A stretch of 64,000 bases of DNA from Spartobacteria bacterium (GTDB taxonomy: Bacteria > Verrucomicrobiota > Verrucomicrobiia > Chthoniobacterales > UBA6821). This document shows, piece by piece, positions 851 to 36,347 of the stretch. The stretch's first letter is position 1. Every line of letters begins with the position of its first letter. A model generated the notes under the pieces. The model did no database searches. It had not been told where the DNA came from and was given only the letters and a program-made list of their open reading frames with translations. The stretch is from the NCBI GenBank assembly GCA_947487385.1, contig CANKWU010000001.1, positions 75,576 through 139,575 of the forward strand, in the 5' to 3' direction. Made by a program: the position numbers and the translations under genes.

Positions 851-926
851 TAAAAAGAGTGAAATTCCTCCCCGACACGACAACCTCTGGTCTTTAGTGC
901 CTAAGATGGGTAAATAACTGGATGTC

Positions 927-1535
927 ATGATAACTTTTGTCGAAGGGATACTGGAAGATGTGCTTCCGAACCAAATCGTCGTCAATGCTTCTGGAATCGG
1001 CTACCAGATTCTCATCCCGCTTTCGAGTTACAGCAAACTCTCTTCCACGGGTGCCAAAGTTCGGGTGCTGACGCATCACCATGTGCGTGAGGATGCCCAA
1101 ATTCTCTACGGTTTTTCCTCGGCTGAAGAACGTGATCTTTTCCGTCTGTTGATGGCTCATGTCTCAGGTATCGGTCCGAAGCTAGCCCTTGCTATCCTTA
1201 GTGGAATGGAAGTCGGGCATTTCAAATCGGCCGTGGTCACCTCCGATATCGCGGCGATTTCAAAGATATCCGGAGTCGGCAAAAAAACCGCCGAACGCGT
1301 CGTTCTCGAACTCAAGGATAAGCTCGGAGTCGCCGCAGAATGGGAAGCAGCAAGTCGTGAAAACGCCCCGTCAGGTATTGAACGCCATCTCCATGACGCC
1401 GTCCTGGCCCTGATATCGCTGGGTTATAAACAGGCAGATGCCCACAAGGCTGTCAAAGCCGTAATGCCCAAGCTTTCGCCTGATTCCTCCGCCGAAGATA
1501 CGGTGCGTGAGGCACTCAGGAATCTGCTCTCATGA
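927..1535 (+). CDS. ruvA: Holliday junction DNA helicase subunit RuvA
   Basis: MITFVEGIL..GIGYQILIP..VREDAQILYGF..ERDLFRLL..VSGIGPKLALAILS..ISGVGKKTAERVVLELKDK. This is an OB fold plus two HhH motifs and a C-terminal domain, about 200 aa. Confidence 0.93.
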   Translation: MITFVEGILEDVLPNQIVVNASGIGYQILIPLSSYSKLSSTGAKVRVLTHHHVREDAQILYGFSSAEERDLFRLLMAHVSGIGPKLALAILSGMEVGHFKSAVVTSDIAAISKISGVGKKTAERVVLELKDKLGVAAEWEAASRENAPSGIERHLHDAVLALISLGYKQADAHKAVKAVMPKLSPDSSAEDTVREALRNLLS

Positions 1536-2973: not shown

Positions 2974-4280
2974 ATGCACACGCTCCAAAACGTGCTGGCT
3001 CGGCTACCGCAGATGTCTATTGGAAACGGAACTTCCCTGCATCAGAAAGCGAATGGAGGCCCGGGCAAGGGGCTGCTTGATCCTATCCTTCGGGGGTTGA
3101 TACGGAATGGTTCTCTTAGGGTCATTGATTGGAGTGGATCTTCGGAAGCCTATGGCGATGGTCAGGGAGAGGAGATTGTCATCCGGATTCATGATCGTAA
3201 AACGGGATGGAGGCTGCTCCTTGATCCGCAACTCGGGGCAGGTGAGGCCTATATGGATGGTAAACTAACGATTGAGAGGGGATCGCTCCATGACTTCCTT
3301 GAACTGCTCTTTCGCTCGATCGGGCTGAAATCACTGAACTATCCACTGAGTGGTTTGACGGAACGACTGCGGGATTTGATGCGTGTGTTTCACCAGTTCA
3401 ATCCGGTCTCACGCTCTCGCAGGAATGTGGCCCATCACTACGATCTCTCGGATGGTCTTTACGATCTCTTCTTAGATGCTGACAGACAATATTCCTGTGG
3501 TTATTTCGCGACTGGGAAGGAGACTTTGGAGGAGTGCCAGGAACTCAAGAAGCGACATATCGCAGCGAAGTTGATCCTTCGCCCCGGTGACAGGGTGCTC
3601 GATATTGGATCGGGATGGGGGGGCTGGGGCTGACGCTGGCGGGAAAATTCGGTGTCGATGTGACGGGATTGACGCTTTCTACCGAGCAGCATGCCTATGC
3701 GAATCTCCGCGCCAGCAATGCAGGATTGGCAGATCGCGTTCGTTTTGAAATGCGTGACTATCGCCATGAGTCACGCTGCTATGACCGGGTCGTGTCTGTT
3801 GGAATGTTTGAGCACGTGGGGGTGAACCATTACGGGGAGTTTTTTCGTAAGATCTCGGACTTGCTTACGGAGGATGGCGTCGCGCTGATTCACTCCATCG
3901 GCAGACCGGAGGGACCGGGACACACAAATCCCTGGATAGCAAAACACATCTTTCCCGGAGGTTACTCCCCGGCGCTTTCAGAAGTTCTTCCTGAAATCGA
4001 GAAGGCAGGTTTGTTTGTGACGGACATAGAGATTCTGAGGATGCACTACGCCCACACCCTGCGCCTCTGGCATGAACGCTTTAAAGCGAGAAGGAATGAT
4101 GCAGGAAGACTCTATGACGAGCCCTTCTGCAGGATGTGGGAATTCTATCTCGTCTCCAGCGAGCTGAGTTTCAGATACCAGGGGCAACTGGTTTTTCAGA
4201 TTCAGTTGGCTAAGCGTCCGGATGGTGTCCCTGTCACTCGGGATTACATCCACAGCTTTGAAGCCGTCAACAGATCCTAG
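2974..4280 (+). pseudogene. cfa: cyclopropane-fatty-acyl-phospholipid synthase, interrupted by a frameshift at a G7 tract
   Basis: ORFs 2974..3633 and 3615..4280 together give a full-length Cfa (..NVAHHYDLSDGLYDLFLDADRQYSCGYF.. then ..VSVGMFEHVG..FPGGYSP..MWEFYL..). The break lies inside the SAM motif VLDIGSGWGG/LGLTLA, at the G run 3617-3623. One extra G restores the frame. Confidence 0.85.
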
Positions 4281-5497
4281 GAAAGGTCAGCTAGGGAAGC
4301 GAGGGATTCCGCCGCCTGACGGAGTTCCTCGCCGTTTGTCTCGGAGTCCTTAATCATGGGATGCGATGGGTGGAGGAGTTGATTAAGCATCCTGTCCCAA
4401 TGCTCCTGACCCCTAACGATATCGATTTCGATCCTCAGATAATGGATAGGAATTTCCTGGTTCAGCAGATGAGGCATTCGCACGGCATCCTTTTCCGTGG
4501 TGATGATGCAGGAGACGCCGCGGCGGGTGCAACGCTTGATGAAGCGGTCGAGTTCCCGTTTGGAGTAGCGGTGATGATCGGCAAAACTCTGGGTGAGTTC
4601 GAGCGAGACCCCTAGACGCCGGAGTCCCTGCTCGAAGCTCTCCGGTGAGGCAATGGCGGAGAGGGCGGCAGCCTTGAGGCCTTGAAGGGACGAGAGTGGA
4701 ATTTGTTCTCCGGTCGAGAAGTCCTGAAGTTGCACCGGGCGGTGCCGGCATTCGATGATGGGAGCTGTCCTATTATATTTCCTGATGCGGTGGTGAAGTT
4801 CCGAGAGATCACTTCCATCGCATTTGGTGATCATGATGTGGGTGGCGCGTCGCAGGTGAGCGGGAGGCTCACGAAGGGTACCTCGGGGAAGGAGATAATC
4901 GTTACCGAAGGGGGCCTCCCGGTCGATCAAGACCAGATCGAAGCGGCGTTGCAGGCGGAGGTATTGGAGCCCGTCATCGAGGATTAGCAGATCGCTTCCG
5001 AATTGAGAGATGGCATGGCGTCCGCATTCGACACGATCCTTATCGACCACGACCGCAACCCCGCGAAGGTTCTTTGCCAGCATGAAGGGCTCATCACCTG
5101 CATTCCTCGAATCGAGCAGGAGAGCCCCGCCCTCGGAAACCACGCGCACGGGAGAGGGGTTGTTCCCGGGAATCCGTCGCAGTGTGCTTTTGTATCCCCG
5201 GCTGAGGATCGCCACCTTTCTTCCTCGCAAAGAGAGCTCTCGGGCGAGTTTTTCAACAACCGGTGTCTTTCCCGTCCCGCCCACCGTAAGATTTCCAATG
5301 CTTACCACGGGGCATCCAACCTGGTGCGGTCTAAGGATGTTGGAGGCGAAGAGTTGAATTCTCAGCGAGACGATGCCGAGATAAATGAAAGAAAGTCCTC
5401 GAAGAACTATTCGGAGAAGCCCTGCCCTTTTTCCAGCACGACGCTCCAGAATGACATCAACGGCAAACTGCTCGAGTCTGTCGAGAAGCTGCCTCAT
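4277..5497 (-). CDS. lpxK: tetraacyldisaccharide 4'-kinase
   Basis: P-loop context GNLTVGGTGKTPVVEKLA..KVAILSRGYKS and DDGLQ are typical of LpxK. The protein has a C-terminal extension of roughly 60 aa. Confidence 0.88.
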   Translation of the reverse strand: MRQLLDRLEQFAVDVILERRAGKRAGLLRIVLRGLSFIYLGIVSLRIQLFASNILRPHQVGCPVVSIGNLTVGGTGKTPVVEKLARELSLRGRKVAILSRGYKSTLRRIPGNNPSPVRVVSEGGALLLDSRNAGDEPFMLAKNLRGVAVVVDKDRVECGRHAISQFGSDLLILDDGLQYLRLQRRFDLVLIDREAPFGNDYLLPRGTLREPPAHLRRATHIMITKCDGSDLSELHHRIRKYNRTAPIIECRHRPVQLQDFSTGEQIPLSSLQGLKAAALSAIASPESFEQGLRRLGVSLELTQSFADHHRYSKRELDRFIKRCTRRGVSCIITTEKDAVRMPHLLNQEIPIHYLRIEIDIVRGQEHWDRMLNQLLHPSHPMIKDSETNGEELRQAAESLASLADLS

Positions 5498-6378
5498 CAG
5501 GATTTGACGATCCTGGCCCCTTTGTTGTCGGCGGCGACAATGGCGATCCTGACCCCCTGCGGTGCGGCAGCACGCATTGACGAAGCGATTTTTTTTGCAG
5601 AAACGGCATCAGGAGCAATGCAGCAGATGGTCGAACCGGATCCGCTAAGCCATCCCCCGATGGCTCCAGCCTGCTCTCCCGCTTGGACAACCTTTCCCAG
5701 GAAGGGCACGAGCTTGGCTCGGTAGGGTTGGTGAAGGCGGTCGCCGAAGGCTCCCTGGAGGAGTTCGTATTTTCCCGTGGCAAAGGCCGTTGCGATTACC
5801 GCTGCATCGGCGGCATTGGCTGCTGCATCGATGATACTGATCGAGTTCGGCATGACCTTGCGCGCCTCGGGAGTGGCTACCTCAAAGTTCGGAATGAGGA
5901 GAATAAAGCGGAGTTTTGATGTGACCGACAAACGGATCGGATCAAGATGAGAGCGGGCAATCGTGAATCCACCAAACATTGCGGGAGCCGCATTGTCAGG
6001 ATGGCCCTCCAGTTCCGCGCAGAGCCGATAGATACCAAGGCGTGAGAGAGGATTGCCGCTCAGGGCATTGAGTCCCATGAGGGTACCAAGACGGACAGTG
6101 ACGCTACTTCCCAGACCTCTTGCTTGGGGGACGCTTCCCTTGATTTTCCAGGAAAACGGGAAGGGAGTGAGTCCGCTCCCCAGGAAAAAACTCCTGCCCG
6201 TGGCCTCGACCATCGCAGGCAGGGCAACCGGCTTTTGCTCCCCGGTGATCGTGACAAGGTTGGCAACATCCATGGCCAATCCAAACGAATCGAATCCAGG
6301 CCCCAGATTTGCCGTGGTGCCGGGGATTGAGACCGTGACGGAAGTTGTGAGCTTCGCCTTTTTGATTACCTTGCTCAT
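5497..6378 (-). CDS. thrB: homoserine kinase
   Basis: Start trimmed to the ATG at 6378 (MSKVIKK..), because the longer track ORF runs through the tRNA gene. GHMP motifs are PGTTANLGPGFDSFGLA and PQARGLGSSV. The TGA overlaps the lpxK ATG by 1 nt. Confidence 0.88.
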   Translation of the reverse strand: MSKVIKKAKLTTSVTVSIPGTTANLGPGFDSFGLAMDVANLVTITGEQKPVALPAMVEATGRSFFLGSGLTPFPFSWKIKGSVPQARGLGSSVTVRLGTLMGLNALSGNPLSRLGIYRLCAELEGHPDNAAPAMFGGFTIARSHLDPIRLSVTSKLRFILLIPNFEVATPEARKVMPNSISIIDAAANAADAAVIATAFATGKYELLQGAFGDRLHQPYRAKLVPFLGKVVQAGEQAGAIGGWLSGSGSTICCIAPDAVSAKKIASSMRAAAPQGVRIAIVAADNKGARIVKS

Positions 6379-6559
6379 GAGATTGAAAAGTATCACTGCT
6401 TCCGTAGTGACAATCAATATCTCGATAGGAGGGGTTATCCCGTGCTTTGCACAGGCTTTGGAAGAGGGCTTGGCTCTTACCAATTTGCCGCTGATCACTG
6501 TATGCCTTTCGAACCCAAGGTTCGTAACCCGTCTATTCACACCATTCAACGATGTTGAA

Positions 6560-6650
6560 TGGCGGTGAGGGAGGGATTCGAACCCTCGGTACCCTTTTGG
6601 AGTACGGCGCTTTAGCAAAGCGCTGCTTTCGACCACTCAGCCACCTCACC
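6560..6650 (-). tRNA. tRNA-Ser (anticodon GCT), CCA encoded
   Basis: The reverse complement folds by hand. Acceptor stem is GGTGAGG/CCTCACC. The D stem is 3 bp. The anticodon arm is GCGCT-TTGCTAA-AGCGC, giving anticodon GCT. There is a long variable arm (GTAC..GTAC) and a T arm GAGGG-TTCGAAT-CCCTC. The discriminator is G, followed by CCA. Confidence 0.95.
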
Positions 6651-6731: not shown

Positions 6732-8075
6732 TTGGATTATTTAGAGTTTCGACCTCGATTTTTGGGCTGTCCCTCCACAGCACCGATACCCCAATCGGAC
6801 CATGCTGTGAATTCAGAATTACCTCTTCAGTCCCAAGATCATCCGGCAACATCAAAACTACCATGGAGTTCCTGGATCGCCTCCCGGAAGCGTCAGGTTG
6901 CTTTCTGGATACTGATTGTTGCCGTGTGCATGCTTGTAACCCATCTGATCGACGGGCATCTGGCACAAGAGGCTGAAGGTACTGATGGGATTGTTCGCTC
7001 CGGCGCCTGGGGCGATCTTCAGGAATGGGACATTCGTATCGAGCAACCTCAGGAATATTCCGGCTTTGACAGAACATCTGCGGATGGACCGTTTTGGAGT
7101 TTTGGAGCAATGACTCCCGAAGCTGTCCACGGCCTTCTGATCGCCAGTGGGTGCACGGAAGAACAATCAGCCAAGCTACTGGCGGAAAGGATCCAAGGCA
7201 CAGGCGCAATCGTCATTTTAAAGCCTGATTGTGAAATCATTCTCAACCTCTCACCTGAAGTCCGCTCCAAGCTCTATCTACTGCTCGCGCAGAATCCTTC
7301 GAACCGATTTCAGAAAGCGCCCTATTTCATCCCTAAGGGCGATGTAGGGAAATTCTTCGAGAACCATCACTCCTCGGATGGAAAGGCGAAGAGGCTCATG
7401 AAGCGCTTGCTCTATGAGCGGAACGGGTTCACCTATTTCAGCGATCCTGAGACAGTCATCAAGGAACTCAACTCCGATAAGGAGAGGTGTGATTTTATCA
7501 GGAGCCTGACGAGTCAGAACGCCCTTTTGGCCGAACTTCTCATCCGTTCCGGCTCCGATATCGACAAGCCGCTGAACTACTGGGCGCTCTCGATGCCTGG
7601 AGTTCTCTTGAAGAATCTGAAGCCACTGGTTGAGGCACAGAAACGCCTTCCCCACGGTGGCTCTTTCAGCCTGCTGTATGCCCTGCCTCCGATGGCACGC
7701 GACAGACTGTTCACCTCTCCATTGCCACCGAAAGATGGGGATTTAAAAATGCCTGATTGCCATTGGACGGTGCTTAATTTTTTCAGCCAGACCCCGGATC
7801 CTAGGATGAGTGACAACGACTTTGCGGGACACTACATCACAGATCACTATTATGAGATCGCTCAACCGGGAATTGCCGGAGACCTCGTTCTTCTACTGAA
7901 TGCATCGGGTGGAGTGATTCACTCAGCTGTTTATCTTGCCGATGACGTGGTTTTTACCAAGAACGGCATTTGCTACGCTCAACCTTGGATTCTGATGCAT
8001 CAGGATGATCTTGTTGGAACATTCTCTGCAATGAGTCCGATCAAGGTCGGCTACTTCCGTCGAAAAGAGATGTAG
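6732..8075 (+). CDS. membrane-anchored hypothetical protein with a C-terminal papain-like (NlpC/P60-like) Cys/His signature
   Basis: 447-aa ORF with one TM helix (VAFWILIVAVCMLVTHLI). The C-terminal part has DCHWTVLNFF followed by GDLVLLLNASGGVIHSAVYLADDVVFTKNG. Only TTG or GTG starts lie upstream of the TM helix, so the start is uncertain. Confidence 0.5.
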   Translation: MDYLEFRPRFLGCPSTAPIPQSDHAVNSELPLQSQDHPATSKLPWSSWIASRKRQVAFWILIVAVCMLVTHLIDGHLAQEAEGTDGIVRSGAWGDLQEWDIRIEQPQEYSGFDRTSADGPFWSFGAMTPEAVHGLLIASGCTEEQSAKLLAERIQGTGAIVILKPDCEIILNLSPEVRSKLYLLLAQNPSNRFQKAPYFIPKGDVGKFFENHHSSDGKAKRLMKRLLYERNGFTYFSDPETVIKELNSDKERCDFIRSLTSQNALLAELLIRSGSDIDKPLNYWALSMPGVLLKNLKPLVEAQKRLPHGGSFSLLYALPPMARDRLFTSPLPPKDGDLKMPDCHWTVLNFFSQTPDPRMSDNDFAGHYITDHYYEIAQPGIAGDLVLLLNASGGVIHSAVYLADDVVFTKNGICYAQPWILMHQDDLVGTFSAMSPIKVGYFRRKEM

Positions 8076-11373: not shown

Positions 11374-12050
11374 GAAACAAAAGGGGCTACGTCTCTTGCG
11401 AGCAGTCTGGCGATAAGAATGTTAACAGTCTTGATCAGGTAGAAGACGACTAGGAGCACTAGAAAAAATAATAGGGTCATCTCTTGCGGTTTAGGATCAA
11501 GGGCGTCACGGAGAGCCTGATTCATGAGGTGCTCGGGATTGGTGACCACATCCCAGCTATTGAGTCTGTCAATGCGCCCCAGGTAGATTCCGAAAGCACT
11601 GAGAGATATCATCAGGATTTCAAGCGGGAAGATAAGCCATCCCCAGTGATGCCTCCGAAGCGTCCTGCCCCAGAGCATCATCGAAATCACAAAGCACTGC
11701 ATACCGATCAAAAAATAGAAAAAATATTCCAGGAGAAGGAGACTCATTGCCCAAATTGGCAACGGTGGAGAGACGCGAACCTTGGCGACGAAGTGAATAA
11801 CATCCGTGAGTACATAGGGGGCGTTCGGCAGGAACAAGACCATGGTGGCGAGTAGCGGCCACCAGAGAATCGCTGGAAAACTGCTTTTTTTTTGGAAGAT
11901 AAGAAGAGCAATTCCTAGAGGAATGAGCGCCAGAAAAAGATCGAGACCCATGTGGAATTGAGGTCGGATGATGGCAATGGCCTGTTCGAATGACTGCTGA
12001 ATAAGTGCATGGATCTCGTGGAGTGGTAGGGGGAGGGTTGTTGTGGGCAT
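11370..12050 (-). CDS. DUF1361 family membrane protein
   Basis: LPNAPYVLTDVIH and GRIDRLNSWDV motifs within a multi-TM protein. The gene contains an in-frame A9 tract (11885-11893). Confidence 0.65.
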   Translation of the reverse strand: MPTTTLPLPLHEIHALIQQSFEQAIAIIRPQFHMGLDLFLALIPLGIALLIFQKKSSFPAILWWPLLATMVLFLPNAPYVLTDVIHFVAKVRVSPPLPIWAMSLLLLEYFFYFLIGMQCFVISMMLWGRTLRRHHWGWLIFPLEILMISLSAFGIYLGRIDRLNSWDVVTNPEHLMNQALRDALDPKPQEMTLLFFLVLLVVFYLIKTVNILIARLLARDVAPFVS

Positions 12051-21861: not shown

Positions 21862-23781
21862 CTAAAGCAGCGGCCCTGCTGCAAAGTGATCTGCGGCACC
21901 TGATTTCATCACGTCTACCCAAATCGGCAGGGCCAGTTCCGCTCCGTAGCCTCCACGCATGATGGTCTTCGGGCGATCAAACCCTACCCAGACTCCGCAG
22001 GTGAGTCCCTGAGTGTATCCCAGGAACCAGGCATCCATGAAGTGGTCGGTCGTTCCCGTCTTTCCGGCGGCCGGCTTGCGAAGTCCAAGTTCTGCTGATT
22101 TTGCCGCCGTGCCGCGAGTTAGGACTTCGGTGAGGATGGCTGTGGTAGTTCTGGTCGCCGCAGGGTCGAGTACGGCGATCCGGCCATGGGTTGCCCGGTA
22201 GAGCACCGTCCCCTCGGAGTCGGTGACCTGTTCTATCAGGTGCGGTTGGAGTTTTTTCCCCCCGGTAGCCAGCGCCGTGTAGGCTGTGGTGAGATTCCTA
22301 AGGGTCGATTCGAAGCTGCCGAGGCAGATCGAGGGATAATGCGGCACATGCTCGGCCAGGCCGAGTCGCTCCATCGTGGAAGCGATATCACCCAGTCCGG
22401 TCTTCATGCCGACGCGGACGCTCATGGTATTCCGCGAATGCACAAGTCCCTCCTTGGCCGGAAGATCGCCGCCGAAGGTCCCGTCGCTATTCTGCGGATC
22501 ATAGCTCGAGGAGCGGGGGGGGAGATCCAACGGGGTGAGACGAGCATCACTCACCGGTGTTTCCGGCCTAATCACTCCCCTGCGGAAAGCTTCCTCATAG
22601 ACAAAAGGCTTTGCCGAGGAGCCGATCTGACGCATGGCGACTAGAGCCCTGTTGTACTTACTCTTAGCAAAATCCCTCCCTCCGACGATCGCCGTGATGC
22701 CGCCGCTGGCATTGTCGATGGCGAGAAGTGCCCCCTGGAGTGGTTCGGCGGACTCGCCCTCTTTAGCAAGCCGATGCTGCTGGCGGAAGTCAGGACGCTG
22801 CTCGACTTCTACGAGGCGTTTTGACATGGCGATCTCGGCGGACTGCTGGAGTCCGGCATCGATCGTTGTGTCGATCCTGAGTCCTCCTGTGTCAATCCTG
22901 TCCAAGGGGACGACCTGCTCCAGTTCGTGCAGAATCGCATCAACAGCCCAACTGTTGAGAGGGTTCACCAGGCTTTGCTGGCCGGAGGTTATCGGTTCAG
23001 ACTTCGCCTTCTCAAGCTGGGCATGAGTGATGAAGCCGAGTTCCTCCATCCTTCCTAGGACGACATTGCGCTGTCCGAGGGACGCATCAATATTGTTGAG
23101 CGGAGAGAACTTGTTGGGACTACGGATCAGACCGGCAAGCAACGCCCCCTCCGAGAGATCCATGTCGGAGGCCGGTTTTCCGAAATAAGCCTGACTCGCA
23201 GCCTCGACCCCGTAGAGACCCGAGCCGAAGTAGATGCGATTCATGTAGAGCTCCAGGATCTTCTCCTTGCTCATTTCCATCTCGATGCGAAACGCCATAG
23301 CGGCCTCCAGGAACTTGCGATTGAAGTTCTTCCCCCCGAGAGGGAAGCTGTTGCGGGCTAGTTGCTGAGTGATCGTGCTGGCACCCTGCTTCATCCCTCC
23401 CAGGAGTAGATTTCGGATGGCGGCACGGGCGATGCCGAGTGGGTCGATGCCGTGGTGTTCGTAGAAGCGCGAGTCCTCGCGGCTGATCAGCGCATTAACG
23501 AAATTTGGAGAGACCTTTTCGTAGGGGACAACGACTCTGTTCTCCCCCACGGTCCTGCTGTAGAAGATTCCGGTGCGATCGTAGATCGCCGAACGCTGGG
23601 GCATCTGCCCTATGGTCGAGATGTCGAAGGTCAACGCCCAGAGGTAGTAGAAAAGCCCGATCAGCATCCAGAAAAGGAGAGCCGCAAAGCCGAGCTTGAT
23701 CAGCGTGATCAGGAACGAGCGCTTTTGTATGGGGGGCCTTCTTTTGCCTCGGGGAGAGGAATTGCTGGAGCGTTTGTTCAC
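21862..23781 (-). CDS. mrcA: penicillin-binding protein 1A (bifunctional glycosyltransferase/transpeptidase)
   Basis: N-terminal TM helix. GT51 motifs are EDSRFYEHHGID, GASTITQQLAR and RKF.E. The transpeptidase motifs are SSAKP and KTGTT. Confidence 0.92.
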   Translation of the reverse strand: MNKRSSNSSPRGKRRPPIQKRSFLITLIKLGFAALLFWMLIGLFYYLWALTFDISTIGQMPQRSAIYDRTGIFYSRTVGENRVVVPYEKVSPNFVNALISREDSRFYEHHGIDPLGIARAAIRNLLLGGMKQGASTITQQLARNSFPLGGKNFNRKFLEAAMAFRIEMEMSKEKILELYMNRIYFGSGLYGVEAASQAYFGKPASDMDLSEGALLAGLIRSPNKFSPLNNIDASLGQRNVVLGRMEELGFITHAQLEKAKSEPITSGQQSLVNPLNSWAVDAILHELEQVVPLDRIDTGGLRIDTTIDAGLQQSAEIAMSKRLVEVEQRPDFRQQHRLAKEGESAEPLQGALLAIDNASGGITAIVGGRDFAKSKYNRALVAMRQIGSSAKPFVYEEAFRRGVIRPETPVSDARLTPLDLPPRSSSYDPQNSDGTFGGDLPAKEGLVHSRNTMSVRVGMKTGLGDIASTMERLGLAEHVPHYPSICLGSFESTLRNLTTAYTALATGGKKLQPHLIEQVTDSEGTVLYRATHGRIAVLDPAATRTTTAILTEVLTRGTAAKSAELGLRKPAAGKTGTTDHFMDAWFLGYTQGLTCGVWVGFDRPKTIMRGGYGAELALPIWVDVMKSGAADHFAAGPLL

Positions 23782-27779: not shown

Positions 27780-29456
27780 ATGCAACTTCCTCCTAAAAGT
27801 AAGGACACGAGCCGCTCGCTCCAAGCTATCCTTATCCTTATAGTAATTGGACTCACGGCTTGTGCCAGTGATGCCGTCGTCAAGGTGCGGCCTCCCCGCT
27901 ATCAACTTGTGAGTTCTATGACTCCAACCGCTGGCACGGGACAAAAGATCATGCATGCGATGAGGAGTGTCCATGTGAATCCTCTCTTGGCTCTTGGCGA
28001 GAATATCCAGGCATCTCAGGAGGCGCTATCGCAGCTGAAGGCAAACCCTCAAGACTCCGTTGCCCTACACGACTACAACTTTGCCGTCTCTCGGATCGTG
28101 GGAATTATACGGGCTTCGAAACTGGATCCCTGGACGCATCCTCTTTCCGTTCCCTCTCCCTCGGGAGGGGTCTATCTGCTCGAACATAAGCCCGATTCCA
28201 GACCTCAATGGAATCCTGCTCTTTATACGTTCACCCCGGCCGATGAGTTCATGATCGGGGGCAAGTATGTCGAGGAGCATGTCTCCCGTTACGGAATCGG
28301 GGCTCCCGTGGTTGCGGTCGGCAAGGGAGATAACAAGGATTGGCGCAAAAACTACTTTACCAAGAAGGTCTATTATGGCGTGACGGCTGTGGCCAGATTC
28401 CAGGGTAACCGCTGCATCATTGCCTTCGAAGATCCTCTGGCTCAGGAGAGGACTTCCGTCAACGGACGCTCGATGGATCTGGCTGCGGATTTCACCGTTC
28501 CGCTGGCGGTGATGCTCACCAGCACGACTCACAAGGTGCCTAAGTTGGAAAGGATGCTCTTCCCCGAGAAGTATGCGGAGACGGCGCAACTCTCCCGGCT
28601 TGAGCCTTACAATCCGAACAAGGCCGTGGTCCTAGTGATCCACGGGCTGATGGATTCTCCCTCCACCTGGGCGCCGATGATTATCAACCTGCGCAGCGAT
28701 CCGGAGATCCGAAAGCATTACCAGTTCTGGTTCTACAGCTACCCGTCAGGTTACCCCTATCCTTACTCCGCCTCCATCTTGCGCGAGAATCTGAATGGGG
28801 CCGAGAAGCGCTTTCCCCTGCACAAGCCGATGGTCGTGATCGGTCACAGCATGGGGGGGTGCATCAGTAGACTCCTGATCACCGACACGGGGGATACACT
28901 GTGGAAACAGTTCTTTAAGCACGCACCGGCGGAGACCCCGCTCTCTGCATCCTCGAAGAAACTCTGCACAGAGGCCTTGATCTTCAAGCATCGCCCGGAA
29001 ATCGGCAGGGTCATCTTCATCTCCTCACCACTCAAAGGGAGTGAGATGGCCTCCCTTTCCGTCGGCAGGATAGGATCCATGCTGATCAGGACCCCGAGGA
29101 GTTTGCTCCTAGCTGGCAATGACGCCTTTAAGATCGCGACTTTCCAAGCCAATGATCTGAAGCTCAAGCGTGCTCCCAACAGCATCGACACGCTCTCTCC
29201 TAAGAACCGCTTTGTCCGCCTGATCAACACAATTCCGATCGTACCAAGCATCCCGTATCACACGATCATCGGCGACCGAGGGCGTGGCGACTCCCCCAAC
29301 TCATCCGATGGAGTCGTCCCTTACTGGAGCTCCCATATTGAGGCAGCCCAGTCCGAGTATATCGTCCCGAGTGATCATGGAGCCCATCAGAACCCGAAGG
29401 CCTTTTCCGAAGTGAAGCGGATTCTTAAGCAGAACGCTGTGGAGGAAAATAACTGA
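27780..29456 (+). CDS. lipoprotein, alpha/beta-hydrolase (lipase/esterase-like) with a long N-terminal domain of unknown function
   Basis: Start trimmed to the ATG at 27780. Lipobox is LIVIGLTAC. The C-terminal half has VLVIHGLMDSPSTW and the nucleophile elbow GHSMGG, with later D and H candidates (..DGVVPYWSSH.., ..SDHGAH..). Confidence 0.75.
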   Translation: MQLPPKSKDTSRSLQAILILIVIGLTACASDAVVKVRPPRYQLVSSMTPTAGTGQKIMHAMRSVHVNPLLALGENIQASQEALSQLKANPQDSVALHDYNFAVSRIVGIIRASKLDPWTHPLSVPSPSGGVYLLEHKPDSRPQWNPALYTFTPADEFMIGGKYVEEHVSRYGIGAPVVAVGKGDNKDWRKNYFTKKVYYGVTAVARFQGNRCIIAFEDPLAQERTSVNGRSMDLAADFTVPLAVMLTSTTHKVPKLERMLFPEKYAETAQLSRLEPYNPNKAVVLVIHGLMDSPSTWAPMIINLRSDPEIRKHYQFWFYSYPSGYPYPYSASILRENLNGAEKRFPLHKPMVVIGHSMGGCISRLLITDTGDTLWKQFFKHAPAETPLSASSKKLCTEALIFKHRPEIGRVIFISSPLKGSEMASLSVGRIGSMLIRTPRSLLLAGNDAFKIATFQANDLKLKRAPNSIDTLSPKNRFVRLINTIPIVPSIPYHTIIGDRGRGDSPNSSDGVVPYWSSHIEAAQSEYIVPSDHGAHQNPKAFSEVKRILKQNAVEENN

Positions 29457-30598: not shown

Positions 30599-31669
30599 TC
30601 ATGATTGATCTGACTCAAAAAGCTCCTGTTGTAGTTTTTCCTCCAACTCGATGTTCTCTTCCTCAAACCGCACGCCTGTTCCCAGCAACCGGACGGGGAG
30701 ATCTTTTCTCCCAAAGGCCTCGGTGAGTAGGGTCTGGTAAATCTCGACTGAGGGCTCGATGCAGAGGCTTTCCCTTGTAGTCCGGGTGAAATCGGCGAAT
30801 TTCACTTTCACGAAGGCTTTGCGGATTTTTCTCTCCGGAGCTTTTTGGCGTAACTCTTCGAGAAGTTCCCAGGAGAGTTCCGTAATGGCAGCTTGGCACT
30901 GCTCTAGGGAAACCAGATTGTCACCGAAGGTGGTCTCATTGCTCAGGGATTTACTGATGCGATGGGGTTCAACCTCCCGAACATCCTCTCCTCGGCAGAG
31001 GCGATAAAGCTCCTCTCCCCATTTCCCGAACTGCAGAACCATTTCTGGTAATGGAATTTTCAGAAGATCAGTGCAGGTCAGGATGCCGCGCTCTGCAAAC
31101 CGCTCCGCGTTCTTGGGACCGATGCCCCAGATCTTACGCACGGGGAGTGCTGCCATGAATTCCTGAACCTGCTCCGGTAGGATGGCGAACTGGCCGTTGG
31201 GCTTGCGCCAGTCGCTGGCGATCTTGGCCAACATCTTGTTTGGGGCGATTCCGGCTGATGCGGTCAGGCCCGTCTCCTCGAAGACCCGGGCGCGGATTTC
31301 TTTCGCGATGTCCCAGGCATAGCGTCCCTGCTCCGATAAAGAGGTCACATCAAGATAGGCCTCGTCCAGAGAGAGAGGCTCTACCAGCGGGGTGTAGTCG
31401 CGGAAGATCTCCCGGATCTGCTGCGAGGCGGCGCGGTAGAGCTCGAACCGGAGGGGCAGAAAGACCAACTGAGGGCAGCGTTCCCGCGCTATGAATCCCG
31501 GCATGGCGGAGCGGATCCCGAACTTGCGGGCCTCGTAGTTGCAGGTTGTGACCACACCTCGGTGACTGCCTCCACCCACGGCGACTGGTTGACCGGCTAA
31601 CTCCGGTCGCTCACGCATCTCCACCGCCGCATAGAAGCAATCCATGTCGATGTGGATGATTTTGCGCAT
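30599..31669 (-). CDS. dinB: DNA polymerase IV
   Basis: [24 protein letters not shown] and the little-finger region. 356 aa. Confidence 0.95.
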   Translation of the reverse strand: MRKIIHIDMDCFYAAVEMRERPELAGQPVAVGGGSHRGVVTTCNYEARKFGIRSAMPGFIARERCPQLVFLPLRFELYRAASQQIREIFRDYTPLVEPLSLDEAYLDVTSLSEQGRYAWDIAKEIRARVFEETGLTASAGIAPNKMLAKIASDWRKPNGQFAILPEQVQEFMAALPVRKIWGIGPKNAERFAERGILTCTDLLKIPLPEMVLQFGKWGEELYRLCRGEDVREVEPHRISKSLSNETTFGDNLVSLEQCQAAITELSWELLEELRQKAPERKIRKAFVKVKFADFTRTTRESLCIEPSVEIYQTLLTEAFGRKDLPVRLLGTGVRFEEENIELEEKLQQELFESDQS

Positions 31670-32531: not shown

Positions 32532-33173
32532 CTATTTTCCCTCGCGGCGGCGATTCGGACGTGGATTAGCTTGGGGATTAGGACGGGGCCGCTTGGCTGG
32601 AGCCGCAGGTGAGTCTTTTTCGGAGTTGGCTGAACTGGCTGAAGAACGCGGTTCCTCAGACTGCTCTTGACGGGGTTCGGTTTCCGAATCCCCCCGATCT
32701 TCTCGATAAGAAGGGGCTGAGGGCTGCGTGGGTACATCCTGCTCCTCGAAATCGCGCTGATGACGATCGTCTCGGTGACGATCCTCCGTAGGATCTGTCT
32801 GGTCGTGATCCTGGTGGGGTTGATTGGGTTGACGGTTATCCTGCTGGCGTCCCCGCTGCTGGCGGTCGTCGCGCCGGCCTCCCCCTCCACTACCTCCACC
32901 CTGCTGCTGATTGTGCTGACGCTGTCCCTGCTGTTGGTGCTGAGGGTTACGCTCCTGCTGGGAGCGCTTTTGCAGTGCTGAGGTAAGCTCCTTCAGCGAA
33001 GCGACAAGATGGACTCCAAGGTCACCCTCGGGTTCGTGGGCCTTCTCGATCGACTCAGCCACTCCCTCGACGGCACCCGTGAGGCTCTCTAGGGACGATT
33101 GGATGGATTTGAGGCTTAGAGCAATGCTCTTGAGGAAATCTGTGTTGGGGTCTGTTTCTGAAGTGCTCATCAA
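32532..33173 (-). CDS. hypothetical protein: short helical N-terminus plus a long Q/R/D/G-rich disordered tail
   Basis: 213-aa ORF whose ATG overlaps the DUF1365 stop (ATGA). It has low-complexity composition (..QHQQQGQRQHNQQQGGGSGGGGRRDDRQQRGRQQDNRQ..). Confidence 0.5.
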   Translation of the reverse strand: MMSTSETDPNTDFLKSIALSLKSIQSSLESLTGAVEGVAESIEKAHEPEGDLGVHLVASLKELTSALQKRSQQERNPQHQQQGQRQHNQQQGGGSGGGGRRDDRQQRGRQQDNRQPNQPHQDHDQTDPTEDRHRDDRHQRDFEEQDVPTQPSAPSYREDRGDSETEPRQEQSEEPRSSASSANSEKDSPAAPAKRPRPNPQANPRPNRRREGK

Positions 33174-34048
33174 TTTGATTGGTGATCTATGGAATTTTTG
33201 GAATCTGTATCCTGCTCAGAGTGGGCGCAGGAAGAGGGATGGTTGGCGAGAGATTTGTGAGGGCGGTGGATCCCTTGTTGAAGTTCTGGAAGGGCTTCCT
33301 TGCGATGAGCCTTGTGGCCTTTCAGCCAGAGAAGAAGGGCCTGCCAGTGGATACCAAAGATGACTTGGAGTGTCAGGAACGGGTATTTGAGCGAAAAGAG
33401 TAGGAGGTTCCGATCGGTGAGGGGGACCCTGACCCCGGTGAGAACACTTATTAGCTCTCGCTCCTCACCACGGTAGTCATCGATAAGGACCTCGAGGCGC
33501 TGGCCGGGGAGATGGAAGCGAAAATCAAACTCGAGATCGAGATCGGAGAATGGAGAAACATAGAAGTGCTTCACCACGCGACTCAAGAAGGTCCCGTCAG
33601 CCTGGAGAGGAACCAGATACGGTTTCCATTCTCCGAAGGTGTTCCCAACCTCGGCCACCGAAGTGAGGGGGGCTCCTTCCCTGTCGAAGCAGTAGTAGAT
33701 CGAGATCGGATTGAAGATGTAACCTGCGATCCTGGGTAGTGTGAGGAGCTGGATCTTTCCCACGGGCTTTGTGATCCCCTGTGCGGTGATGTAAGCGATG
33801 ATGTTTTCCCGCGCTGAGACTGGGTGAGGCACGTGACTGATGTGATCGCTTTCCCGGATGCTGTAGAGGCCGGGCCGGTTGACCTTCAGCAGGAAGAGTG
33901 ATCGGTCGATAGTCTCCAGCTCGTCGAGGTCGATCAGCAGGTAGAAGACTCGGTATAGGAACTCATGCTCTTTCGGTGCCAGTCGGCGGTGAAAAACCGT
34001 GCACTCGTAGAGGCATGAGCGTAGGCATGAGCGGAGGGGAAGCGTCAT
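33170..34048 (-). CDS. DUF1365 family protein
   Basis: N-terminal LYECTVFHRRLAPKEHEFLYRVFYLLIDLDEL, then ..NPISIYYC.. and ..HFYVSPF.., typical of DUF1365. Confidence 0.8.
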   Translation of the reverse strand: MTLPLRSCLRSCLYECTVFHRRLAPKEHEFLYRVFYLLIDLDELETIDRSLFLLKVNRPGLYSIRESDHISHVPHPVSARENIIAYITAQGITKPVGKIQLLTLPRIAGYIFNPISIYYCFDREGAPLTSVAEVGNTFGEWKPYLVPLQADGTFLSRVVKHFYVSPFSDLDLEFDFRFHLPGQRLEVLIDDYRGEERELISVLTGVRVPLTDRNLLLFSLKYPFLTLQVIFGIHWQALLLWLKGHKAHRKEALPELQQGIHRPHKSLANHPSSCAHSEQDTDSKNSIDHQSN

Positions 34049-34111
34049 TGGGAATAGGTGACTGGGAATGGGTAATCCGTCCCAGCATTACTGGGGATCA
34101 TTCTCTGCGCC

Positions 34112-35422
34112 TCAGCGCCTTTGCGCGAGCATGGTAATGACGGCCTTTGCCGTATCGAATCCCGCCATGCAGGCATCCTCATGGAATCCGTAGCGGAAGT
34201 AGCTTCCGCAGAAGAAGAGACGCCCCGCGTGATTGAGCTTCGGAAGTTCCCGCTGGGCCCGGATCGCCTCTAGGGTAAAGACAGGGTGCTCGTAGGTCGT
34301 CTGGTAAAGAATGCTCGAAGTAGAAATCCGGTCATCGCTGTTCAGGGAGACAAAGTAATCCCGCTTCTGAGAGACCCCCTGTAGGGCATTCATCCAATAA
34401 TGAGTAGCCGCGCGCTGATGAGTATCTGGCCCCTGCTCTACTCGGAAATTCCATGATGCCCAGGCCCTGCGGCATTTCGGCATCACAGAGGCATCGGTGT
34501 GAAGGGAGGCTTTGTTTTGTTGGTAATTGAAGGACGAAAGCAAGCGCTGTTGATCCTTCGAGGGGTGAGCCAGAAGCTTCAAGCTCTGATTGGCATGAGA
34601 GGCCAGGATGACAGCATCGAAGCGCTCACGGACTCCAGATGCTGTAGTGATCCAGGCGCAATCTTCCTTTTCCTCAACCGAAATAACGGGATCACCGAGG
34701 CGAGGCTGGCCCAAAGTCTCCAGCATTTTGTTCACATAGGTGCGGGCGCCTCCATCCACCGTGAACCAGGGATGGTGGGTGGTGATTCCTAGGAATCCGT
34801 GGTTATGGAAGAAGTGCAGCAGCGTCGAGGCAGGGAAGTCGAGGATGCGGCCCGGCTCCGTGGACCAGACGGCGGAACTCATGGGAACGAGATAGAGATC
34901 GAGGAAATCGTTACCGAAACCGTGCTTCTTGCAGAATGTGGCAAGATCCTCAGTGTCGAAATCCGCTTTCTCGTTCGAGGAGTCATTCTCGGCTTCATCG
35001 CGCAGCCACTTTCTGCCGACACGGAAGAAGCGCATGATCTCGGCGATTAGCATCAGGAAGCGGAGGTTGCCGAGATTGCGGCGTTGTGCGAAGAGCTTGT
35101 TCAGCCCCATCCCGTTGTACTCGAGGCCGCTTGCTGTATGCTGAACGCTGAAGGACATCTCGCTCGGCTTGATGGCAATGCCGAGTTCACTGAAGAGACG
35201 ACAGAGATGGGGATAGGTGACTTTATTGAAGACAATGAATCCTGTGTCGATCGGTATCTTGTTCCCATCCTCCGCCACGGTCACGGTGTTCGTATGGCCA
35301 CCGGGTCGTTTCTCCGACTCGAAGAGGGTGAGATCCGCAAGGTCGCGCAGTCCCCAGGCACAGGAGAGGCCTGAGACCCCCGTGCCGATAATGGCTACGC
35401 GCGGACGATCTTTATTTTCCAT
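34112..35422 (-). CDS. FAD/NAD(P)-binding amine-oxidase-like oxidoreductase
   Basis: Start trimmed to the ATG at 35422 (MENKDRPRVAIIGTGVSGLSCAW..), with a Rossmann GxGxxG. It is the usual partner of DUF1365. It overlaps the desaturase stop by 11 nt. Confidence 0.8.
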   Translation of the reverse strand: MENKDRPRVAIIGTGVSGLSCAWGLRDLADLTLFESEKRPGGHTNTVTVAEDGNKIPIDTGFIVFNKVTYPHLCRLFSELGIAIKPSEMSFSVQHTASGLEYNGMGLNKLFAQRRNLGNLRFLMLIAEIMRFFRVGRKWLRDEAENDSSNEKADFDTEDLATFCKKHGFGNDFLDLYLVPMSSAVWSTEPGRILDFPASTLLHFFHNHGFLGITTHHPWFTVDGGARTYVNKMLETLGQPRLGDPVISVEEKEDCAWITTASGVRERFDAVILASHANQSLKLLAHPSKDQQRLLSSFNYQQNKASLHTDASVMPKCRRAWASWNFRVEQGPDTHQRAATHYWMNALQGVSQKRDYFVSLNSDDRISTSSILYQTTYEHPVFTLEAIRAQRELPKLNHAGRLFFCGSYFRYGFHEDACMAGFDTAKAVITMLAQRR

Positions 35423-36347
35423 GAACCAGCATGTTCTCCTGCTTGTAGACACTTTCAGGAACACGCTTGAGATTGCTGATGACACCCAGCGCTGCTAGCA
35501 GGCGCAGGGTATAGTAGGTGGGGTCGATCTCCCACCAGTAGAATCCCTGCTGTGCCGAGGACTGGTAGCGATGGTGGTTATTATGCCAGCCCTCGCCAAG
35601 CGTGATGATGGCTAGTAGGAAGCTGTTGCGGCTGTCATCGCCCGTATCATAGCGTGGTGTGCCCCAGACATGGGCCATGGAGTTGATGCAGCAGGTGCCG
35701 TGGAAGAGCAGGACCGTACTGATGAATCCGCCCCAGACAAGCATCTGGAGGCCTGAGGTATGAAGCCCCGGGGCCAATAACTGAAGCGCGGCTCCCAGGC
35801 CGTATGTGAGTAGGGCAACCAGCAGGGGGCCGATCAGATCGAAGCGATTCAAAAAAACGAGTTCCGGAAATTTCGTCAGATCTGGTATCAGGCTGTAGTC
35901 GGTAGGGAAGTTTCTGCTGCTGGTCATCCAGCCGATGTGAGCCCAGAGAAAACCCTTCTGCTTTGGAGAATGAACATCGACCTCCTCGTCCGAGTGTGCG
36001 TGATGATGGCGGTGGACCGCAGCCCACCAGAGAGCTCCGCGTTGGACGCAGAGCAGTCCGAGAAGAGCAAAGAGGAACTGAACGGGACGGGAGGCTTTGT
36101 ACGATTTGTGACAGAAGTAGCGATGGTAGATGCCTGTGACAAAAAACATCCGGATGACGTAGAGAGCTGCGCAGGCTAATAAGGCCACAGGGCTCCAGCC
36201 GACCCAGAGGACTCCGAGGCATCCGAGATGCAAAATAATAAAGGGGAGGGCCCTGCTCCATTCCATCCTCTCGGGCATGGCGCGCGTCGCCTCGACCCCC
36301 TTGGGAAAGTAATCCGAGTCGATAAAACGGATCAATGGGCTAGTCAT
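35412..36347 (-). CDS. acyl-CoA / acyl-lipid (delta-9 type) fatty acid desaturase
   Basis: Three histidine boxes (HRYFCH, HRHHHAHSD, HNNHH) in a 4-TM protein. Confidence 0.9.
   Translation of the reverse strand: MTSPLIRFIDSDYFPKGVEATRAMPERMEWSRALPFIILHLGCLGVLWVGWSPVALLACAALYVIRMFFVTGIYHRYFCHKSYKASRPVQFLFALLGLLCVQRGALWWAAVHRHHHAHSDEEVDVHSPKQKGFLWAHIGWMTSSRNFPTDYSLIPDLTKFPELVFLNRFDLIGPLLVALLTYGLGAALQLLAPGLHTSGLQMLVWGGFISTVLLFHGTCCINSMAHVWGTPRYDTGDDSRNSFLLAIITLGEGWHNNHHRYQSSAQQGFYWWEIDPTYYTLRLLAALGVISNLKRVPESVYKQENMLVHGK

Follow-up and report, generated by a model that had tools for sequence, protein, structure and literature searches.

A lineage-specific frameshift in a guanine tract of cfa in freshwater Verrucomicrobiota, very probably a young pseudogene

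Guanine tracts of 7 to 8 nt can phase-vary in other bacteria, the 7-nt tract of Mycobacterium tuberculosis glpK being one example (PMC10334774), and 75% of the homopolymer-tract indels of M. tuberculosis are homoplastic (PMC10334774). A 7G tract in Mycobacterium smegmatis gains a base at a rate of ~3e-8 per generation (PMC10334774), the sole direct measurement for such a tract that a literature search turned up and a figure that in our reading would describe a normal mutational hotspot and no switch. As for shifts of frame during translation, a survey of 64 heptamers in Escherichia coli found the lowest frameshifting at G_GG.G_GG.U (0.018% without a stimulator), and G_GG.G_GG.C is absent from the motifs exceeding 0.10% (PMC4066793). 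During transcription, every insertion within a homopolymer run that error surveys of the E. coli and Buchnera transcriptomes detected lay in an A/T run, from which the authors concluded that runs of G or C are not prone to slip (PMC5574713).

Here, we analyze a 64-kb stretch of DNA (the window) in which cfa, the gene for a cyclopropane fatty acid synthase, is interrupted at a run of seven G (G7), and we compare it with the same locus in other public assemblies. The locus is very probably a young, stably inherited frameshift pseudogene of cfa, specific to one lineage of freshwater Verrucomicrobiota.

One gene in two frames

The interrupted gene comprises the following features:

2974..3633, + strand: ORF A, 219 aa, the 5' part of cfa, ending at a premature TGA
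3615..4280, + strand: ORF B, 221 aa, the 3' part of cfa, read in the −1 frame with respect to ORF A
3617..3623, + strand: G7 homopolymer, from which one nucleotide has been deleted; eight G (G8) in intact alleles of this species
3618..3624, + strand: heptamer G GGG GGC, which formally matches X XXY YYZ when read in the frame of ORF A
3631..3633, + strand: premature 0-frame TGA, created by the frameshift
4122..4124, + strand: codon 384 (intact-gene numbering), CCC (Pro) here and CGN (Arg) in intact lineages and outgroups

An initial annotation, made from the window alone, had described ORFs 2974..3633 and 3615..4280 as a cfa gene split by a one-base deficit within SAM-binding motif I, and each of its sequence statements proved correct on checking. 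The run at 3617-3623 (+) counts exactly seven G; ORF A ends in ...VLDIGSGWGGWG followed by TGA (over a longer stretch, ...RVLDIGSGWGGWG and TGA), ORF B begins with MGGLGLTLAGKFG, and one G inserted into the tract gives an uninterrupted 435-aa protein that carries DIGSGWGGLGLTLAG. If the frame were restored, the peptide spanning the junction of the two ORFs would read GSGWGGLGLTLAGK. The formal slippery heptamer, which had also been pointed out, can be read directly from the sequence: at the tract, the codons of the ORF A frame are TGG GGG GGC TGG GGC TGA, with the 0-frame stop at 3631-3633 two codons 3' of G GGG GGC, and those of intact alleles from the same species are TGG GGG GGG CTG.

The Pfam CMAS profile (PF02353) matches ORF A over profile positions 5-75 with 87 bits and ORF B over positions 74-273 with 177.5 bits (cut-off, 27); the two matches are contiguous, which makes the ORFs halves of one domain, and the profile is covered at full length only by both frames together. 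ORF A holds the N-terminal DUF7884, CMAS positions 5-75, strand β1, and the Gly-rich loop of motif I, and ORF B holds the MFEHVG, HSIG, and HY motifs, all of them conserved, along with helix αA of the Rossmann fold. Motif I (VLDIGxGWGGL) is invariant in 123 homologues and intact within one polypeptide in the G8 alleles L081-L083 and L096-L098, whereas in the window it is broken, reading VLDIGSGWGGWG-stop. Residues E280, H307, and Y359, which are likewise invariant in the homologue alignment, all lie in ORF B, 3' of the frameshift, and align with the MFEHVG, LHTIG, and DY positions of the E. coli enzyme. We take the bicarbonate ligands of E. coli Cfa to be a Glu, a His, and a Tyr, of which these three residues would be the counterparts. 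The solved structures used for comparison were 5Z9O (Lactobacillus acidophilus), 7QOS (Aquifex aeolicus), and 6BQC (E. coli); the repaired protein aligns with 5Z9O over residues 49-426 (E = 4e-78) and keeps VLDIGxGWGG, MFEHVG, HxIG, HY, and ERFxRMW.

In an AF2 model of the intact allele (pLDDT 86.5, pTM 0.85), the frameshift falls between the strand at 207-211 (VLDIG) and the helix at 217-226, so that ORF A would lack essentially the whole Rossmann fold. This position bears on whether ORF A and ORF B might be made separately and reassemble into an active synthase, a functional split enzyme that we find next to inconceivable. Both ORFs are still open in all ten known copies with the G7 tract, and the ATG of ORF B (3615) overlaps the end of ORF A, which would in principle permit translational coupling. 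However, a lesion this young is expected to leave both frames open by chance, no recognizable Shine-Dalgarno sequence lies at a usable distance 5' of this ATG, and the same out-of-frame ATG is also present in intact alleles and is therefore not an adaptation. Reassembly would moreover have to join strand β1 and the Gly loop (207-216) to helix αA (217-226), which in the model belong to a single Rossmann fold, and among the 120 homologues listed no such split is found outside the G7 clade.

At its 3' end, cfa (+) converges with lpxK (−) in a 4-nt overlap at 4277-4280, where the two stop codons share the palindrome CTAG. A tRNA-Ser(GCT) gene at 6560-6650 (−) overlaps the 5' end of a mechanically called ORF at 5497-6636 (379 aa), so that the true start of this GHMP-kinase (homoserine-kinase-like) gene must be further downstream; other assemblies have it called as 333-347 aa. 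At E <= 0.01, no Pfam family matches the two ORFs at 1532-2881 (+, 449 aa) and 6732-8075 (+, 447 aa), and counterparts of similar length and position are present in L099 and L102, relatives at 83-84%. They are conserved proteins of unknown function on either side of the cfa-lpxK-kinase block. A lipid-modification cluster occupies 32532-36347 (−):

35412-36347, − strand: fatty-acid desaturase
34112-35485, − strand: amine-oxidase-type flavoprotein
33170-34048, − strand: DUF1365 protein
32532-33173, − strand: 213-aa ORF without a Pfam match

Clusters of desaturase, amine oxidase, and DUF1365 genes often accompany cfa-like methyltransferases. No CMAS gene is present in this cluster (32.5-36.4 kb), and a tblastn search of the 64-kb window found no second, compensating CMAS gene. 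The window also encodes a DinB/Pol IV-type translesion polymerase with IMS family domains, at 30599-31669 (−). Pol IV has been linked to −1 frameshifting at runs of G, and this polymerase is a possible contributor to the cfa lesion.

Tract length and lineage across assemblies

The repaired protein is matched at 99% identity by an intact 435-aa protein, P0001, and the 90%-identity cluster holds both half-proteins of the window together with several intact versions. Tract lengths, taken from assembly consensus sequences, divide these copies into two groups. G7 is present in the window and in nine assemblies retrieved from ENA, Logan, and JGI (L084-L092), which carry nine distinct sample or run accessions. 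Reads are possibly shared among some of these, in that L084 (SAMN08297371) and L088 (SRR6475630) may be one Lake Zurich sample. SRR6475630 and SRR12667319 are Lake Zurich metagenomes (PMC10244341). The 219-aa product of ORF A is called, identical, on 9 other contigs. G8, with an open 435-aa frame, is found in six assemblies of the same species (L081, L082, L083, L096, L097, and L098). The ten G7 copies make up one SNP haplotype, with 0-7 differences from the window over 2.4-9.3 kb, and L081-L083 diverge from the window at ~1.5-1.8% of sites. A 9.2-kb multi-assembly alignment has 277 variable columns, and the only indel among them is the G tract; the sequence that flanks it is identical in the G7 and G8 groups, the nearest SNPs lying at 3525 and 3685.

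Homopolymers are classic miscall sites and one missing base is the only lesion, both of which speak for an assembly or sequencing error that hides a true G8 and an ordinary intact gene, the reading that the initial annotation had put first as the most parsimonious. Against it, the same G7 comes from several pipelines (ENA, Logan, JGI, and NCBI) and from nine other accessions, always on one haplotype, whereas G8 was recovered six times, on other haplotypes and with identical sequence around the tract. Tract length follows lineage perfectly, and since the local context is the same in both groups, a context-dependent miscall cannot explain why it does so. The 9.2 kb contain no other indel, and the other long tracts of the window (G8 at 22515-22522, G7 at 28853-28859, and T9/A9 at 11885-11893) each sit within an uninterrupted ORF (639, 573, and 226 aa, respectively), in line with the initial annotation, which had described these tracts as in frame. 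Nor did a scan for other broken genes change this picture: it covered 19 adjacent same-strand ORF pairs, whose 25 members not otherwise accounted for were compared with Pfam, and these neighbors match different Pfam families, mostly over most or all of the profile, with three having no match; cfa was the only split gene found in the 64-kb window. An error at the tract is thus extremely unlikely and effectively refuted, and G7 is the real sequence of this lineage.

Within cfa, the species divides into four lineages, namely, the G7 clade, L098, clade B (L081-L083), and clade C (L096 and L097). Changes were polarized with the outgroups L099, L102, and L001 at 83-84% amino acid identity, L001 being an 84%-identical relative from a scan of genome contigs. 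A comparison of tract length in related genomes, which the initial annotation had proposed as a check, gave G8 or G7 within the species and no long run in the outgroups. These outgroups and a further relative, L106, read TGG GGC GGT or TGG GGA GGA at the site, which identifies the G8 run as a synonymous peculiarity of this species. L098 has every haplotype-A allele of the G7 clade but carries G8; it differs from the window at 3 positions in 1658 nt (the tract, nt 4123, and nt 4302), and within cfa nothing but the lost G and Arg384→Pro separates it from the G7 clade. Given this near-identity, a single origin from an intact ancestor of the L098 type suffices. The G7 clade itself contains at least four sub-haplotypes (the window type, L084, L089, and L091), none of which has reverted, and the lesion is therefore older than their diversification.

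The second change that sets the clade apart lies at nt 4123, where codon 384 has gone from CGC (Arg) to CCC (Pro) in the G7 lineage only; all other lineages and the three outgroups have Arg, and G7 cosegregates perfectly with P384 (10 versus 6 copies, Fisher p = 1.2e-4). Among 123 homologues at >=59% identity, this residue is Arg in 115, Glu in 7, and Lys in 1, and Pro in none, and its counterpart in 5Z9O, 7QOS, and 6BQC is the Arg of the ERFxRMW motif. Such conservation suggests that R384P is likely harmful, a view to which the model adds nothing. Structural damage had been considered as evidence and was rejected: in the AF2 model of the intact allele, a predicted helix spans 383-402 with residue 384 in its second position, and proline is structurally tolerated at helix N termini. 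Changes specific to the G7 clade comprise four nonsynonymous ones (R384P, E238V, V421F, and S435L) and one synonymous one. The resulting ratio of 4:1, against ~13:22 on the intact branches (one-sided Fisher p = 0.09), is only suggestive of relaxed selection, the clade being young and the counts too small. E238V, which also occurs in the intact clade B, is weak evidence of decay.

The distribution of E238V (GAG to GTG, window 3685) is in itself uneven, in that clade B and two G7 contigs (L089 and L091) share the change and codon 238 is Glu in the outgroups and in the remaining G7 copies; this pattern would stem either from homoplasy or from recombination among lineages of this species. At the cfa/lpxK junction, L084 (ERZ28614289) has five SNPs clustered in 17 nt (window 4275-4291), including S435L in the last cfa codon; a short recombined segment could account for them, as could a local fault in the assembly. 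The annotated start of ruvA (window 915-947) also varies, with RuvA being called as 202 aa in the G7-clade assemblies and as 209 aa in those of clades B and C.

Taken together, one G7 origin, an inherited lesion, and R384P argue for the genuine pseudogene that had been listed as the second option in the initial annotation, of which the anatomy and this option stand and the top ranking of an assembly error falls. We propose that in this species the two glycine codons of motif I, GGG GGG, make up the G8 run with the preceding TGG, and that in one recent lineage replication slippage shortened G8 to G7; slipped-strand mispairing is the likely origin of the lesion. Translation of the G7 allele would end at GSGWGGWG-stop and leave a 219-aa fragment without almost the whole methyltransferase fold, so that enzyme activity would be lost and cyclopropane lipids made by this enzyme would be absent. 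On this account, an intact haplotype-A ancestor would have lost one G and acquired R384P, and the resulting clade would then have spread, the lesion being inherited stably as the lineage diversified and sampled repeatedly in lake metagenomes. Fixation of Arg384→Pro in the same lineage would fit a gene no longer under selection.

Phase variation and recoding

The finding of both tract lengths within one species, at >98% nucleotide identity, and in a G8 run that is a species-specific synonymous choice (GGG GGG versus GGC GGT or GGA GGA in relatives), could be taken to point to a contingency locus at which slipped-strand mispairing reversibly turns cyclopropanation on (G8) and off (G7). Lengths of G7 and G8 are at the lower edge of known phase-variable tracts. 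We regard such phase variation as improbable. There is no homoplasy, as one origin covers all 16 assemblies, and no reversion is seen across at least four G7 sub-haplotypes, nor any G7 in the three G8 lineages: haplotype A with P384 is G7 in 10/10 copies, and the other copies are G8 in 6/6. The tract is absent from relatives, and a revertant to G8 would still have R384P. A variable-gap scan of metagenome contigs found no G6 or G9 alleles among the few matches that it returned, which were only one G8 copy, two relatives with an interrupted tract, and three unrelated matches. G/C runs of >=7 nt are not enriched in the window (7 observed versus 12.2 ± 3.6 expected under a first-order Markov model). 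No relevant paper came up in a literature search for links between cfa and either phase variation or frameshifts at homopolymers. With no homoplasy or reversion among the assembly consensus sequences, in which minority G8 variants would not show, and no tract in relatives, the phase variation raised in the initial annotation is improbable, and a reversible contingency locus at cfa is not supported.

A related and quite improbable idea is that cyclopropanation is switched slowly and reversibly below the level of the assembly consensus or that basal slippage on G7 keeps up a trickle of Cfa. If true, a free-living freshwater Verrucomicrobium, and not a host-associated pathogen, would provide the first case of contingency-type control of cfa.

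The G7 allele might also yield full-length Cfa through recoding, either by a −1 ribosomal frameshift on G GGG GGC or by the addition of a G by RNA polymerase, as the initial annotation had also considered. In form, this is an X XXY YYZ heptamer that is followed two codons later by a 0-frame stop, and a −1 shift or one additional G in the mRNA would give back the exact motif. Yet in E. coli, all-G heptamers rank near the bottom for −1 shifting (PMC4066793). A fold of the 100 nt 3' of the heptamer (3625-3724) gave −34.2 kcal/mol versus −32.2 ± 3.6 kcal/mol for shuffled sequences (z = −0.56), and no stimulatory structure was found in this segment. Transcriptional slippage typically takes place on A/T runs of >=9 nt, and the tract here is G7. 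The flanks, moreover, are identical in the G8 lineages, which need no shift, so that nothing has evolved here for recoding, and a two-frame arrangement of cfa is found neither among the 120 homologues listed nor in the other lineages of the species. R384P suggests a lost constraint, and read-through would give no more than a background amount of product, itself bearing this substitution. On a poor slippery motif with no stimulator found and no conservation of the shifted arrangement, recoding is thus very unlikely.

Probable loss of Cfa and comparison with known systems

If the locus is a pseudogene, as we consider very probable, an uncultured Verrucomicrobiota species has lost Cfa in one widespread lake lineage and kept it in the sister lineages. 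Annotators should then label the locus a pseudogene rather than "correct" the sequence, and lipid predictions for this lineage should omit cyclopropane fatty acids made by Cfa. The cfa-null clade is the most often assembled form (10/16), a hint that in lakes the loss may bring an advantage or at least no cost. The case also offers a worked example of how independent public assemblies can separate a miscall, an inherited pseudogene, and phase variation without reads; beyond annotation, its importance is little.

By sequence, the gene is a homologous member of the Cfa/CMAS family, with the motifs of the family kept in the repaired protein. It differs from its relatives in being interrupted in motif I and in carrying R384P, which would make it a pseudogene and not a working member. 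With programmed −1 frameshifting, as in dnaX and the IS3/IS911 transposases, it shares the formal X XXY YYZ heptamer and a 0-frame stop close by, but, unlike in those systems, the motif belongs to an inefficient class, no stimulator was found, and the orthologues are read in a single frame. Likewise, homopolymer phase variation, as in the 7C tract of M. tuberculosis glpK and the poly-G tracts of Campylobacter, Neisseria, and Haemophilus, involves a G/C tract of 7-8 nt within an ORF, and in those loci as in cfa the length of the tract sets whether the frame is open or closed. In contrast to them, the cfa tract has no recurrent or reversible switching, no spectrum of lengths, no genome-wide enrichment, and no conservation in relatives. 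The closest likeness is with strain-specific frameshift pseudogenes made by slippage, which show the same loss of a single base at the longest G run of the gene with a premature stop, the same vertical inheritance in one clade, and a second, likely damaging substitution. Nothing essential differs from them in cfa, and the case is notable only for the many independent metagenome assemblies in which the lesion can be followed and for the intact sister haplotype, L098, that fixes the ancestral state.
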